Source: Longimicrobiales bacterium (GTDB taxonomy: Bacteria > Gemmatimonadota > Gemmatimonadetes > Longimicrobiales > Gaopeijiaceae). Taken from it: DNA of 64,000 nt. The DNA is taken from contig OZ220732.1 of NCBI GenBank assembly GCA_965116905.1, forward strand, positions 864,001-928,000, given 5' to 3'. The stretch's first letter is position 1. Each line of letters starts with the position of its first letter. The notes under the pieces were generated by a model. The model did no database searches. It was not told where the DNA came from and saw only the letters and a list, made by a program, of their open reading frames with translations. Positions 54,564-63,827 of this stretch are shown here, one piece after another. Position numbers and translations under genes: made by a program.

Positions 54564-55567
54564 AAGCCTTCCACGAACTCGATCCGCGGCACCTCCAGCG
54601 TCCCCGCGACGATCTCCTCCCGGGCCCTGTCAATGGCGGCGAGCACGTCATCCGGGATCACCCCCTCCTGAACCGGATTGGGCACGAAGTCCACAGCGCC
54701 CGCCGCGATCCCCGAGTAAAGAACGTCGTCGGACAGGGTCCCCGCCGCCCATGCCGTCGCCGTCCTCAGGAACATGGCCGGAATGTCGATCACCGCGCTC
54801 CCCACGATCACGTCGGGGGCCACGTCGTTCTGGTTGCGGTTCATCCCGAACGCCCACGCCTCGCGTCCGCCTTCGCGGGCCTCGCGCACCGCCTGGAAGA
54901 AGCCGAAACTGGCTGCGTCCACGTTGTGAATCAGCACGTCCGCTCCCTGCCTCAGCTGGGCGGCGGCCGCCTCCTTGGCCGCGGACACATCGTCCCAGTT
55001 GCCGATGAAGGTCTCGAACACCGTCGCGTCCGGGTTCACCGCTCTCACTCCGGCCTCAAACGCGACGAAAGTGCCCTTGGCCGAGGGGATTTCGACGCCG
55101 CCCACCATGCCGAGCACGCCGCTCTGACTGACCGAGGCCGCCGCCATCCCCGCCAGGTAGGTCGCCTCGTTGAGGTGGAAGATGAGTGGCACCACGTTCG
55201 CCGACGGGCGCGACCCCGACGAGATCACGAACGTGACGTCGGGATACTGCTCAGCGGCGCGGCTGGCCGCGTCCTGGTACTCGAATCCGTGCCCGAAGAT
55301 CAGGCCGTAGCCGGCCTCGGCATAGGAGATGAAAGCCTCGTCGAACTCGGCCGGAGTCCGCGTCTGCTGGTGCGAGATCCGGAACCCCAGAGAGTCGCCG
55401 ATGAAGTGCAGGCCCTCGTACGCGCCAGCGTGCCAGCCTGCGTCGCTGACAGGGCCAGAGGTGAGCAGGGCGACGGAGGGGGTGGCGTCGAGGACCTTGT
55501 CTTGGACGGTGCACGCAGGGATGGCGACCAGGAGAACCGTGCTCGCCCAGGACGGTAAACGGGTCAT
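54560..55567 (-). CDS. BMP family ABC substrate-binding lipoprotein
   Basis: Lipobox-like IPAC, GPVSDAGW, GHGFEY, YLAGMAA and GNWDDVSAAKEAA motifs. ATG at 55567. Confidence 0.9.
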   Translation of the reverse strand: MTRLPSWASTVLLVAIPACTVQDKVLDATPSVALLTSGPVSDAGWHAGAYEGLHFIGDSLGFRISHQQTRTPAEFDEAFISYAEAGYGLIFGHGFEYQDAASRAAEQYPDVTFVISSGSRPSANVVPLIFHLNEATYLAGMAAASVSQSGVLGMVGGVEIPSAKGTFVAFEAGVRAVNPDATVFETFIGNWDDVSAAKEAAAAQLRQGADVLIHNVDAASFGFFQAVREAREGGREAWAFGMNRNQNDVAPDVIVGSAVIDIPAMFLRTATAWAAGTLSDDVLYSGIAAGAVDFVPNPVQEGVIPDDVLAAIDRAREEIVAGTLEVPRIEFVEGL

Positions 55568-55719
55568 GGTGGTCTCGCGCCGTGTATGGTGGGAGGTGGA
55601 CCGGCCAGCATCTTTGAGGCCGGTGAGAAGCGAGGTGTACAAAAGATAGTACGGTGGCACGCCGCATGGGGTCGGCGCAGGCCCCTGAAACCTCTCGGTT
55701 CAGTTCACGGGAGACACCG

Positions 55720-56037
55720 CGGACCGCCGGGCGCAAGAACGGGCTGGGCGGGGGCCTTAGGTAGTGATCCTGGACCGCGCTCGTCCGGCGATTCTGGTTG
55801 ACGAGTTGAGTGACCTGGGTTCGCGGGTAGCCCGTCACCTTGTCAAGAAGCCGCTTCACCAAGCCCTTGCCATCCCCCTCGGAGCCGTGTCAAAGGGGAG
55901 ACCAGCGTCTGGCGAACGAAAACGTAGGCGAGGTCCAGTCCGCCGACTTCGATGTCGACCGCCTCCGTTCCCCCTCGAAGCAAGGCCCGCCTGTACCCGA
56001 GGATCCGAATCCGTTCGGCGTGAAGTATCTCGATCAT
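55720..56037 (-). pseudogene. Degraded N-terminal fragment of an integrase-domain IS transposase
   Basis: MIEILHAERIRILG...TEAVDIEV...AYVFVRQTLV in one frame continues in another frame as VKRLLDKVTGYPRTQVTQLVNQNRRT...PPPSPF. This resembles the N-terminus of a transposase family recalled as KGLVKRYLxKVTGxSRAQxTRLI. No catalytic domain is present. Confidence 0.6.
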
Positions 56038-56654
56038 TCGCAAAGGACATCTTCGCCCTGCGCCTAGGCTCACCTTTTGCTGGAGACCGCCCTCGCGTTG
56101 AGCTCATTTCTGGTGGTGGACGACTCATAGTTGCCTGAGATCGGTGGACAGGATACCTTGTCGGGGGCGTAGCGGGGGGCAATTCGGGAAGCTCGGCGAG
56201 TTGGCGGATGTGCCTAGGCGACCCGAGGCTCGGGATAGCTTCTGCACCCGCCCAAATCCATCCGTCGCGCCATTAGGCCTTCGTGAGGGCTGGCGCGGCA
56301 CTCCCGCGTTTCACTGCGACGAAGATACGGCGATGATCCGAGACTGACCCGCTTCTCCTATTCCATGCTCTATACCGACAAGAACAGATCACGCTCACGA
56401 CTTTGGGTAAGGTTGTGCAATCATTTGATGTCACACAAACACCAACTCGAATGCCTTTCGCCTATCGAAGCTTAACTGTGCAATCGCAATTGGGGTTGCT
56501 GCCATTCAAGCGCTTTGTCACTTAGGCGGCTAGAGGATCCGACGACCCCGCGAAACCAAGACCGCTATTCACTTCTAAGTGGGGTGCAAAAGTATGTGCA
56601 ACGCGCCCAGCCGACTTTGAGGACAGAGTCGCCGATGACAAAAGGAATTGCCTC

Positions 56655-57218
56655 ATGAGCAAGACATCGGGAAGTGGCACAGAACGGGAGGAAGACCTGA
56701 TCAATGAGGTTGAAGATTGGGTACGGAAGTGCTGGCTCAACATGGTGGGCGTTGCCAAGCGCCAGGGATGGGAGGCGGATGAAGCCGAGGACATAGCGCA
56801 GAGTGCCGCAGTGACGGCGCTCGAAATTGCAAGGCACGAGCCGGAACGGTTGGGCGCGGTGCGGGATATCTGCTGTCGGTGGATGTGCGGAGTCGCTTGG
56901 AACGTAGGACGGGCTGCTCGCACGAAGAGCGAGAGGCGGAAGAGGATTCTGCAGGAGAGCGCTCAGGAAGTCCGACAGATGCTCGCTCCCAGATTCGAGT
57001 CGGATGGGATGATGAGCTCTCGGTGGGTCAGAGTTTGGGATGCTGCGGGGAGGGCTCTTCCTCCGCGGCAAGCGGAGGTCGTCCGACTGATCCTGCAGCG
57101 CCAGATGGATGACGCCGAAGTGGCAGCGATACTCGACATCTCGGAGACGACTGCCCGGTGGCACCGAAATGAGGCCACCAAGACCCTGAGGCGAGTCCTG
57201 AGCCAGCAAGAGCAGTGA
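56655..57218 (+). CDS. Divergent ECF-like sigma-70 factor
   Basis: AAAGGA RBS; region 2-like EAEDIAQSA...RWMCGVAWN; region 4-like LPPRQAEVVRL...DAEVAAILDISETTARWHRNEA. Confidence 0.75.
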   Translation: MSKTSGSGTEREEDLINEVEDWVRKCWLNMVGVAKRQGWEADEAEDIAQSAAVTALEIARHEPERLGAVRDICCRWMCGVAWNVGRAARTKSERRKRILQESAQEVRQMLAPRFESDGMMSSRWVRVWDAAGRALPPRQAEVVRLILQRQMDDAEVAAILDISETTARWHRNEATKTLRRVLSQQEQ

Positions 57219-57551
57219 GTCTCGAAGATTGGCTTAGCCCAGCTAAGCGAGGGAGGCGAGCCCTCAACTCGAGTTCTCGATGCCCATTGACAGGTTTGGG
57301 CTATCTGGCGTCGATAGAAACTGCGCGCGCGGGCACGTCTTGCGCTCATCGGTGGCCTCCACCGGATGATGAATCTGGCGCCGGGCCACGGTGGCCGACC
57401 CAACAGAATGGATCCTTCATGACCACTATAGGGTAGATCGGCGGGCACGTAACAGTAAGCCGCAGCACCCGGAATGGCAGCAGCCAAAGCGAAACCAACC
57501 GATGATTCTCCTCCAACTTCGCGGGACGCCGCTGGTGTTGGCACTCCCAAT

Positions 57552-58160
57552 ATGAGAAGCGCGCCGTTGCGTTCTCGGTCATGGACGGTGGCCGTCAGCG
57601 TTCTTCTGATCACCGCGACCGCGCTCATTGTACGGTCCAGATCCGTAAACCGGGAATTGCGAGCTTTCTTTGAGATCCAAAGCTCAATCGCCGCGCGAAC
57701 GACGACTCACGACCGCCTAATCGGCACACGAGTGCCATCGCATCTTCGGGGTCAATTGGCCGAGGCTGCGGCAGTTGCTACAGATCAAGGTGCTCGGCTG
57801 CTTTGGATCGTCGACACCGACCGCTGCGGGCGTTGTCTGACCGACGGTTTGGGGGCCTGGAACGCGCTGGCCAAAGACAGCACCCTGGTGAGACAACTGG
57901 TGGTAGTAGGCGACGCCCCGGTTCCTGAGGAGGCCAAGCGTGCGCTGCGAAGTACTCCGGCGATTTCCGTGACCAGGGAAGACCTCCGGACCACGTTCGG
58001 ATCGCTGCTTCCCAACACTAAGATGCTAATAGACGGCAAGGGGATCATTCTCTTGGCCGATTCAAGAAACACCGGCTCGGAGTGCGGCTGGAGCTTCGAT
58101 GCCCAAGTGGGCGCCCTACGTGGGGCGCTCGCTAGCGAACTTGTCCGCAATCAACCTTAA
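57552..58160 (+). CDS. Membrane-anchored thioredoxin-like CxxC protein
   Basis: N-terminal TM helix; LLWIVDTDRCGRCL after a beta-strand; late LPNTKMLIDGKGIIL hairpin typical of redoxin folds. Start is 57552 or 57474. Confidence 0.55.
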   Translation: MRSAPLRSRSWTVAVSVLLITATALIVRSRSVNRELRAFFEIQSSIAARTTTHDRLIGTRVPSHLRGQLAEAAAVATDQGARLLWIVDTDRCGRCLTDGLGAWNALAKDSTLVRQLVVVGDAPVPEEAKRALRSTPAISVTREDLRTTFGSLLPNTKMLIDGKGIILLADSRNTGSECGWSFDAQVGALRGALASELVRNQP

Positions 58161-58179
58161 GATCCGAAAGGGGATCGAA

Positions 58180-58425
58180 ATGGACAGAGTCATCGAGCTT
58201 ATCCGGGTGGCAAGCGCAATCGCGTTGCTTGTCGCGATTACGGTCGGCTCCGGAACCCTAAGCTCAGCGTCCGCCGCAGGGTGGTGCGACGAGGCTGAGT
58301 ACTGCCATTGGGACACACCGGGAAGCTACGACGTCTATGGTGATGGGGAGATGATCGTCGCCTGCGCAACGTCGCACTGTGACTCCACGGAGCAGTGGTG
58401 CTGCCTCGACGGTGCCGAGCACTGA
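58180..58425 (+). CDS. Small secreted six-cysteine acidic peptide (81 aa precursor)
   Basis: AGGGGA RBS before ATG 58180; signal peptide ending ASA; mature AGWCDEAEYCHWDTPGSYDVYGDGEMIVACATSHCDSTEQWCCLDGAEH. Confidence 0.7.
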   Translation: MDRVIELIRVASAIALLVAITVGSGTLSSASAAGWCDEAEYCHWDTPGSYDVYGDGEMIVACATSHCDSTEQWCCLDGAEH

Positions 58426-58508
58426 CCTGGCCTTACTTGGGCGTGGGGGCAAGATCGGCCTTGGGTGCAGCGCAGCTCGAGTGTGTGGTTGCAACTACAA
58501 GTGGGCGG

Positions 58509-59672
58509 TTGCACCTGAGGCCGAAACCTCCAATCGATAGTTCTCTTACCGCACACGGCACGGCCACTGCCCACGGCACAAAATGCGGACCGGTTCCGCG
58601 AACCAGTTGGTTGTCGCTCTTCGCTATCGCCACTGTGCTCGCGGCCTGTGAGGCCGACCCCCACACGGTGCCGTCTCCGCCCTTCGACGAGGTCTTCGCC
58701 TTGGCCGGGACCGTCGAGTTGGCGGAATCACCGACGGATTCGGTGGCTCAAATCGGTATGTTCCGGGAGCGCCGAGCCGGCGGATTCCTCATTTCCGACA
58801 GGCTGCTGCCTCGGATACGTCGCTATTCGGAAGACGGCGCGCTCGAGGCTGCGTTCGGGAACTTCGGCGACGGCCCGTGGGAGTTCCGCCGTATGGGCGG
58901 GTTTGCGGAGACGACCTCTGGACACGTCGTGGTGGCCAACTGGCGCAATTCGTGGCTCAGCTATCTGACGCCGGCGCTGACTCCGGACACCATCGTTCCG
59001 GTTCCGGGCTTGGCGGTCTTCGGAGTGGAAGCCTTCGCCGATGGTGTGATTCTTTACGGAGTGAGAAGCGTCGTGCTGGCCACCATGGGCGGGCGCGAGG
59101 AACGTGGACACCTTCATCGGCTCGTCGCCGATTCGATTGCATGGAGCGCATGGACTTCGAGGACTGACGACAAGCCCTACTGGAACGGCCTGGGTGGCGG
59201 TCGCTCGGTGACCATCGCCGGTGATTCAATATTCGTCATGGAACCACTGCTCTACCCCGCCACCATCCTGAATGGTGCGGGCGATTCCGTCGGCACCATC
59301 GGCTACCCATCCCCCTCCTTCCGCCAGATACCGGAGATTCCGCGTGGCTATTTTGCAGGCGAGCAGAGCGGGTCAAGGGTCCGGGAGGTGTTGCGGAGCT
59401 ACGACCTGGTGAGGCGAATCAATGTCGTCGCAGACGACTACCTGGTCTTCACAATCGGTCGGCCGGATCCGGCGAAACCCACGTTCCCATTTCGCAAGAT
59501 GGACACCGCTGTGGAGGTTTACGATCGCCGCTCTGGCGAGAAGCTCTACAGGGACGTTGACCTTCCGGAGGGGTCGAAGGTCCTCGGCGGGGGTCGCTAC
59601 CTGTACGTGCTTCTCGATCCAGATTTTCCGCCTTGGCGCATCGCGAAATACCGGCTATTGGCCGAAGACTGA
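58509..59672 (+). CDS. Six-bladed beta-propeller (NHL-like) lipoprotein
   Basis: Lipobox LAAC (Cys codon 58647); NHL-like FLISDR...IRRYSEDG...FGNFGDGPWEFRR. True start uncertain; the ORF is open from 58395. Confidence 0.7.
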   Translation: MHLRPKPPIDSSLTAHGTATAHGTKCGPVPRTSWLSLFAIATVLAACEADPHTVPSPPFDEVFALAGTVELAESPTDSVAQIGMFRERRAGGFLISDRLLPRIRRYSEDGALEAAFGNFGDGPWEFRRMGGFAETTSGHVVVANWRNSWLSYLTPALTPDTIVPVPGLAVFGVEAFADGVILYGVRSVVLATMGGREERGHLHRLVADSIAWSAWTSRTDDKPYWNGLGGGRSVTIAGDSIFVMEPLLYPATILNGAGDSVGTIGYPSPSFRQIPEIPRGYFAGEQSGSRVREVLRSYDLVRRINVVADDYLVFTIGRPDPAKPTFPFRKMDTAVEVYDRRSGEKLYRDVDLPEGSKVLGGGRYLYVLLDPDFPPWRIAKYRLLAED

Positions 59673-59791
59673 TATCCGGGTCATAGCGTCCGGTAGCCGA
59701 CCTCGCCGACCCGCGTTATCTGGTGGCCCCCGCCGGGCGAGGGTAGAATACAGGCGCGAATCGCGTTGACCCCCCTGCCCGGAAGCCCCTC

Positions 59792-63413: not shown

Positions 63414-63827
63414 TCAACCACCTACGTGCGTTGGCACCTCGATACCCTTTGCGATTGCGGCCGCGGCCAATCTGCGGTCGAGCGTCGCGAGTGGCAGTTG
63501 CATGCGAAGGGCCAGCTCCAGGTACATCGCGTCGTAAACGGATAGCCCGTCCTCGTCAGCGAGCGTGAGCACCGCTTCCCAGACCCGGCCGGCCGAAACG
63601 GGTTCGATCTCCACCGGCAGACCCTTGAGGCTGTTGCGGACTCTCGTCCATTCGTCCCTGGTGATCCGGCCTCGGCTGGTGGCGACCCACAGGACGTTGC
63701 CCACTTCGATCGGCCAGAGAGCGGGAACGAATGCCCTGCCGTCGATCAGGGACTCACGCAGCCGATCGGTCTCCGGCGAGGCCTCGTCCGCGAACACCCA
63801 CGCCATGGTCACCGAACAATCGAGCAC
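63414..63827 (-). CDS. vapC: Type II TA toxin, VapC/PIN family
   Basis: (FV)LDCSVTMAW, WPIEVGNVL, LSVYDAMYLELA and LATLDRRL motifs. Confidence 0.92.
   Translation of the reverse strand: MLDCSVTMAWVFADEASPETDRLRESLIDGRAFVPALWPIEVGNVLWVATSRGRITRDEWTRVRNSLKGLPVEIEPVSAGRVWEAVLTLADEDGLSVYDAMYLELALRMQLPLATLDRRLAAAAIAKGIEVPTHVGG

Follow-up and report, generated by a model that had tools for sequence, protein, structure and literature searches.

The window analysed here is a stretch of 64,000 nt from contig OZ220732.1 (assembly GCA_965116905.1, positions 864,001 to 928,000) of a Longimicrobiales bacterium, a member of the Gemmatimonadota related to sponge symbionts. Part of this stretch is also present in one sponge-metagenome run. 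Four open reading frames (ORFs) lie on the same strand at positions 56655..59672, as noted in a preliminary description of this DNA, and encode an ECF-like sigma factor, a redoxin with a CxxC motif, an exported peptide with six cysteines and a beta-propeller lipoprotein. The conserved unit within this cassette is formed by three of these genes, those for the redoxin, the peptide and the propeller, which we refer to as the trio. The preliminary description assigned export signals to the same three products, and inspection by eye agreed with this: the redoxin has a hydrophobic N-terminal helix, the peptide a leader with an A-S-A site and the propeller an L-A-A-C lipobox.

The redoxin gene (57552..58160, + strand, alternative start at 57474) encodes a membrane-anchored protein of the TlpA/ResA fold with the active-site motif C92-G-R-C95, as judged from an AlphaFold2 model, Foldseek and a family alignment. 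In the model (pLDDT 80) a long helix at the N-terminus precedes a thioredoxin domain with an insertion of the TlpA type. The top Foldseek matches were ResA, DsbE, StoA and CcmG with a probability of 1.0 (E 1e-5 for ResA, 1su9), which confirmed the thioredoxin fold suspected earlier for the CxxC protein. C92 and C95 come after the first core strand (residues 81-88), and the alignment of P154 to the L-P of 3hdc makes it the equivalent of the cis-proline. The active site lacks the usual tryptophan ahead of CxxC. In an alignment of 126 full-length family members C92 and C95 were each present in 125, C178 in 123 and P154 in 83. The family comprises 159 clusters at 50% identity and has no family name; the Pfam model Redoxin was matched by 5 of 101 members. 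Comparison of the redoxin and propeller profiles revealed no relation between them.

The second gene of the trio (58180..58425, + strand) encodes the 81-aa precursor of an acidic peptide, with a predicted Sec leader (residues 1-32, hydrophobic) and a mature part of about 49 aa, in which the cysteines are spaced C-x5-C-x19-C-x4-C-x6-CC. The peptide ORF proved to be conserved: among 25 homologues five cysteines were invariant and the sixth was kept in at least 90%, within the frame C-x(2-11)-C-x(7-19)-C-x4(5)-C-x6-CC. The net charge of the core was negative in all 29 peptides of the trios, and the alignment contains no invariant tryptophan. No Pfam or NCBIfam model matched above its cut-off, and a sequence search of the PDB gave no meaningful match. 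The peptide model was of low confidence (pLDDT 53) and had no fold match at Z ≥ 2, and an Atlas search with a peptide homologue returned only scores below 0.8. With the cysteine spacing of defensins as the standard of comparison, the part in common with beta-defensins was the x6-CC end only, and the poor peptide model limits this comparison. Among the peptides of loci L012, L013 and L071-L077 many carry a hydrophobic tail after the CC that resembles a TonB box; we did not build on this likeness, since the peptide of the window and several others have no such tail.

The third gene (58485..59672, + strand, start uncertain within 58485-58515) encodes a beta-propeller lipoprotein of about 360 aa, tentatively assigned to the DUF5128/NHL type by Atlas clusters, an NHL profile and its lipobox. 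The codon of the lipobox cysteine is at 58647, and this cysteine is kept in 27 of 29 trio propellers. The nearest ESM Atlas clusters belong to PF17170 (0.95-0.96), and the propeller profile matched the NHL repeats of TRIM71/Thin with E 1e-18, over profile positions 67-134 only. No direct Pfam match was found for the propeller of the window, and the DUF5128 (PF17170) model matched 0 of 65 family members at E 0.1. DUF5128 is a Pfam family without an assigned function. The mature part lacks cysteine in all 29 trio propellers, so that within the trio the peptide alone supplies substrate cysteines. Prediction of a complex of the propeller with the mature peptide gave a score of 0.02, which is no answer and was counted neither way.

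Conservation and mostly one-sided decay of the trio

The host genome contains the trio three times, and other genera and other families within the class carry it as well. The named homologues are from metagenome-assembled genomes of Gemmatimonadetes or Longimicrobiales. We tallied 40 places with a redoxin of the family, namely 32 intact genes, 7 fragments and 1 that was left unscored. Both peptide and propeller were present at 32/32 of the intact redoxin loci, while the seven loci with redoxin fragments retained a peptide at one and a propeller at six. This tally leaves out weak, more distant redoxin matches; at three of these (L080-L082) distant propellers are close by, and no peptide of the window family was found there. 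Since the peptide profile was built from trio loci, its recall at these loci is circular; the adjacency of the genes is not. The gene order is usually redoxin-peptide-propeller, with rearrangements at L070 and L078, and the components are separate ORFs at the trio loci, without a fusion of thioredoxin and NHL domains. The co-occurrence of all four genes that the preliminary description envisaged was found for the redoxin, the propeller and variable peptides, but not for the sigma factor at the loci searched.

In the genus the propeller is more widespread than the peptide. Among 53 genomes of the genus, 29 contain the propeller subfamily (82 matches) and 12 contain the peptide (16 matches), which invariably lies beside a propeller; the peptide of the window family was not found in 17 of the 29 genomes with a propeller. 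Redoxin and peptide were absent from 39 of 41 further propeller loci, each inspected over about 3 kb on the upstream and 2 kb on the downstream side, or less on short contigs. These orphan propellers are intact and under purifying selection, with ratios of nonsynonymous to synonymous substitution rates (dN/dS) of 0.09-0.34 in 9 pairs. In a quick tree of 76 propellers the orphans were interspersed with trio copies: the trio label changed 14 times, and supported branches forced at least 12 of these changes. With midpoint rooting the deepest rows were trio copies, on branches that are long and unsure. The distances of redoxins and propellers correlated with 0.91, which makes repeated loss likelier than repeated gain. 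A search of the phylum with the peptide matched 19 of 401 genomes and added two new places (G296 and G250), where the peptide lacks its 5' end, the redoxin is missing and an intact propeller follows. The decay of the cassette is thus mostly one-sided, with the propeller being kept.

Tandem propeller arrays were found, with four copies at L010 and three at L121. At L010 (6754-13766, corresponding to G000:C1:364750-371770 in the host genome) the four propellers are accompanied by two peptides, one redoxin and an AraC-type gene. The start of the peptide after the redoxin is out of frame there, and run X3 has the same letters.

The three genes also differ in their rates of change. When dN/dS was pooled over the 5 closest pairs of trios, it was 0.83 for the residues between the cysteines of the peptide (50 and 18 changes), 0.53 for the leader, 0.25 for the redoxin and 0.24 for the propeller. 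The peptide loops are therefore about 3.4-fold faster than the partner genes in dN/dS; these rates represent fast loops, not positive selection.

Insertion site, sigma factor and other cassettes

The cassette lies between an ABC/BMP operon and the gene of an NSS-like transporter, in agreement with the preliminary description, their identities being read from the sequence. Its lower content of guanine and cytosine (GC) was borne out as well: region 55660-59720 has 0.609 compared with 0.677 for the genome and belongs to the lowest 1.1% of 4-kb windows, and the GC content at third codon positions is 0.65-0.74 in the cassette compared with 0.84-0.91 in the ABC ATPase, BMP and NSS genes. The transposase remnant next to it is the broken 5' part of an rve-type transposase gene (~55730..56110, - strand) with about 70% nt identity to a multicopy insertion sequence (IS) element of relatives. 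An intact copy in the relatives has an ORF of 420 aa with PF00665 (rve integrase core), and up to 12 copies per genome were listed. A tblastn search of plasmids gave no match to the remnant.

All but one of the 21 best NSS orthologues had a flank that we could inspect. Eighteen of these 20 loci are syntenic, and the gap between the BMP and NSS genes is empty in 17 of them, so the site of the cassette represents an insertion. In the remaining syntenic genome (G014) this gap harbors a non-coding element of 57 bp followed by the propeller alone, which is 90% identical to that of the window. The window carries the same element at 57389..57445 (+ strand), with 91% identity to the G014 copy that separates the BMP gene from the propeller. 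Its likely role is that of a leader or promoter for the operon of the trio. The element was not found at the other trio loci examined, and its region contains no match to the sigma-70 consensus. A contig of run X1 skips positions 55484-58547, like the arrangement in G014. These two observations indicate that close relatives most likely lost redoxin and peptide from the window's cassette by deletion and retained the propeller. Run X1 is from an RNA library, and its contigs cover the propeller of a strain lacking the rest of the cassette; carry-over of DNA is possible. Sigma factor, redoxin and peptide were uncovered in this run, and from contigs alone, which may stem from DNA, neither expression nor silence follows.

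The first gene of the cassette (56655..57218, + strand) encodes an ECF-like sigma factor without an adjacent anti-sigma gene. TIGR02937 matched residues 20-181 with E 5e-10, at 39.3 bits and under the cut-off of 42.9, and the Pfam matches to region 4 (Sigma70_r4_2, E 1e-4) were also under the cut-off. No similar (P0001-like) match was found beside the other trio loci searched, some of which had flanks of 1.5 kb only, and 0 of 14 loci with homologues of this sigma factor adjoin the trio family of the window. G014 keeps the leader of the cassette without the sigma gene. A conserved unit of four genes was consequently rejected, and the sigma factor is a variable passenger or regulator outside the trio. 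Among 20 sigma relatives, 5 have an exported Cys-peptide gene directly downstream (4 when the strict window of the control is applied), compared with 10 of 2252 control genes. The 20 relatives comprise 19 of 34 other places and one paralogue from the host genome. This type of sigma factor accompanies Cys-peptide cassettes in general, and this enrichment makes a regulatory role in the window plausible. The earlier proposal that the sigma factor controls the unit is in this sense retained as a plausible role for the window copy, but not for the trio elsewhere. Other regulators lie upstream of other trios, namely AraC-type helix-turn-helix proteins at L010 and L086 and a different ECF sigma factor at L079.

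At L211, L213, L218, L223 and L226 a sigma relative immediately precedes genes for exported Cys-rich peptides that belong to other families. The gene order at L226 is sigma factor, six-Cys peptide, propeller, CxxC-type protein and propeller. Further cassettes were noticed in the host genome (G000). At G000:C1:2677505-2678550 a second, unrelated cassette consists of a membrane-anchored redoxin-like ORF (with a C-x-x-S/T-type motif region) and a six-Cys peptide with a signal peptide, and is preceded by a remnant of the IS family found in the window. Distant redoxin-like ORFs (E ~0.003 to the family profile) lie beside three four-Cys exported peptides and a propeller at G000:C1:3178700-3180159 and beside four exported Cys-containing peptides at G000:C1:3899726-3901963. 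Further peptides with 4-8 cysteines are encoded at 714532, 945359, 2797977 and 3928685. The third trio of the host (L011:2076-7126, G000:C1:722000-727200) adjoins lanthipeptide-like RamC_N plus kinase, LanC-like and ABC transporter genes; the lanthipeptide-like synthetase appears as two ORFs. In the window itself, ORF 63414-63827 on the - strand looks by eye like a PIN-domain (VapC-type) toxin.

Possible function of the trio

We tentatively favor the view that the trio is a mobile module in which the redoxin folds the peptide and the propeller lipoprotein captures it, resembling a cassette of a peptide and its immunity protein. The precursor would be exported via Sec and cleaved after A32, and three disulfides would form in the periplasm. 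The host genome encodes VKOR and two DsbD/CcdA-type proteins, and no match to DsbB was found in it; given the presence of these proteins, the redoxin is probably a dedicated proof-reader or isomerase, in which C178 may be the resolving cysteine. The mature peptide, acidic and variable in its loops, would then be released and may act on a specific protein target of neighboring cells rather than on membranes. The propeller would bind and neutralize peptides of the cognate type. If it also neutralizes peptides of neighbors, strains without redoxin and peptide could still gain by keeping or duplicating the propeller. The sigma factor likely regulates the window copy and would be dispensable for the module.

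In the way it would work, the trio comes closest to bacteriocin clusters that have their own dedicated oxidoreductase, although it lacks their leader, exporter and charge features. Pediocin PA-1 (pedABCD), sublancin (bdbA/bdbB) and thermophilin (blpG) have dedicated thioredoxin-fold CxxC enzymes, and a secreted disulfide peptide is encoded beside the enzyme gene as in the trio (PMC4919988). Besides the thiol-disulfide oxidoreductase, such clusters contain an immunity gene, for which the propeller is the candidate counterpart here. In contrast to these clusters, the trio has Sec-like hydrophobic leaders instead of double-glycine leaders, no recurring ABC exporter, anionic cores, a membrane-anchored TlpA-type enzyme with three cysteines, a propeller lipoprotein of 360 aa and a diderm host.

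Several findings weigh against a peptide with its immunity protein. Typical bacteriocins are cationic, and every one of the 29 peptide cores is anionic. In three of the 32 trios the propeller is broken, with redoxin and peptide both retained. At L015 (3454-8280, G023) a transposase-like gene and two reverse-transcriptase genes of the group II intron type interrupt the propeller, redoxin and peptide are intact, and G023 shows no other intact propeller copy; the propellers at L077 and L197 are frameshifted, possibly due to assembly errors. Lethal self-toxicity of the peptide therefore seems unlikely. The dN/dS of the core is below 1 on small counts, and relaxed constraint would fit too. A partial Mantel test of peptide core against propeller, given the redoxin, resulted in r 0.37; co-evolution was not counted, since the signal-peptide control was positive too (r 0.32). 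The orphan propellers could equally well reflect a function independent of the peptide.

Such a function is the basis of a rather unlikely alternative, in which the propeller has its own job as an adhesin, lectin or host/matrix binding protein, and the peptide, folded by the redoxin and displayed by the propeller, serves optionally as a small subunit, plug or tag. It would agree with the lack of the peptide family in 17 of the 29 propeller-bearing genomes of the genus, with the purifying selection on orphans and with the 49 propeller-like ORFs in the host genome. It leaves unexplained the fast turnover of the peptide loops beside slow partners and the tandem expansion of propellers at trio loci, and an obligatory peptide subunit is excluded by the orphans. 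The arrangement could be likened to a split NHLRC2 or to the MauA/MauB pair. The operon mauBEDA for methylamine dehydrogenase biogenesis combines a propeller, a thioredoxin-like CxxC protein and a small Cys-rich exported protein. The trio differs from it: no MauE gene is nearby, the sole MauE match in the genome (C1:3691233) is far from all three trios, the peptide has only about 49 aa without an invariant tryptophan, and the propeller is usually found alone. In NHLRC2/SOQ1, a TlpA/Trx8-like domain and a six-bladed NHL propeller are fused and form a common cleft (PMC6107167). The trio consists instead of two separate genes plus a peptide and has C-G-R-C in place of CCINC. The authors of PMC6107167 found no conserved neighbors for seven bacterial NHLRC2 homologues.

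Signaling or kin recognition is an unlikely explanation, according to which the folded peptide serves as a signal specific to the strain, with the propeller as its receptor and the orphan propellers as eavesdroppers, in the manner of LuxR solos. This would predict the same linkage and the same orphan pattern, would tolerate the loss of the propeller in G023 and would fit the regulators that are often found upstream, including the one in the window. However, in the gene calls of the trio and sigma loci no kinase, anti-sigma factor or TonB receptor recurs beside the trio, and a lipoprotein alone is unable to signal across the membrane.

A quite improbable alternative is that the redoxin acts as a reductase that keeps the six thiols of the peptide free to bind metal, with peptide and propeller handling metals or oxidative stress. 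The closest folds are indeed those of reductases (ResA, CcmG, DsbE; TlpA/ResA serve Sco and cytochrome c), the peptides are acidic and often contain histidine, and DsbD-type donors are encoded in the genome. Against this, the variable C1-C2 and C2-C3 distances together with the fixed C-x4(5)-C-x6-CC end suit a disulfide scaffold, the same gene calls revealed no metal transporter or sensor recurring near the trio, and the rapid change of the loops would have no explanation. Several six-bladed propellers are enzymes. Examples are listed in PMC6107167. A role of the propeller as a tailoring enzyme in a pathway like that of ribosomally synthesized peptides with post-translational modifications (RiPPs) would fit the tight gene order and is nevertheless very improbable, as glycine, proline, aromatic and aliphatic residues make up most of the positions common to 26 or more of the 29 trio propellers, with no histidine and few acids, and orphan propellers persist without substrate.

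The layout had been compared with the NVEALA (PF14055) / DUF5128 (PF17170) loci of Bacteroidota, which to our knowledge are uncharacterized. This likeness holds for the layout of a small exported peptide with a DUF5128-type propeller lipoprotein, but 0 of 25 peptides match PF14055; the trio has a different peptide family and a dedicated family of three-cysteine redoxins. A description of the trio was not found in the literature, most subscription journals and all supplements being outside the search. Term look-ups in bioRxiv 2026.03.05.709764 matched neither a propeller nor an operon, and those in PMC10469786 were unmatched. This locus adds the pattern of orphan propellers, a deletion at the same site and the contrast in rates.

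A broader extension of the immunity-like module is possible but doubtful: Gemmatimonadota of sponge-type communities may be engaged in an arms race with anionic, disulfide-locked peptides, in which the propellers would provide peptide-specific immunity or recognition and would be kept as orphan libraries. Each cassette would then bring its own dedicated three-cysteine folding enzyme. The 29 natural trios, together with 38 orphan propellers, form a small set in which binding of cognate and non-cognate partners can be tested. If the module works as proposed, a large family of DUF5128-type lipoproteins that lack an assigned role would gain a function, and a class of bacterial peptide effectors without a recognizable RiPP enzyme would be defined. 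Genome mining would miss such clusters, because no modifying enzyme or exporter marks them. The peptides would also be a source of disulfide-stabilized scaffolds, and the trio would offer a mechanism by which strains interact within sponge microbiomes.

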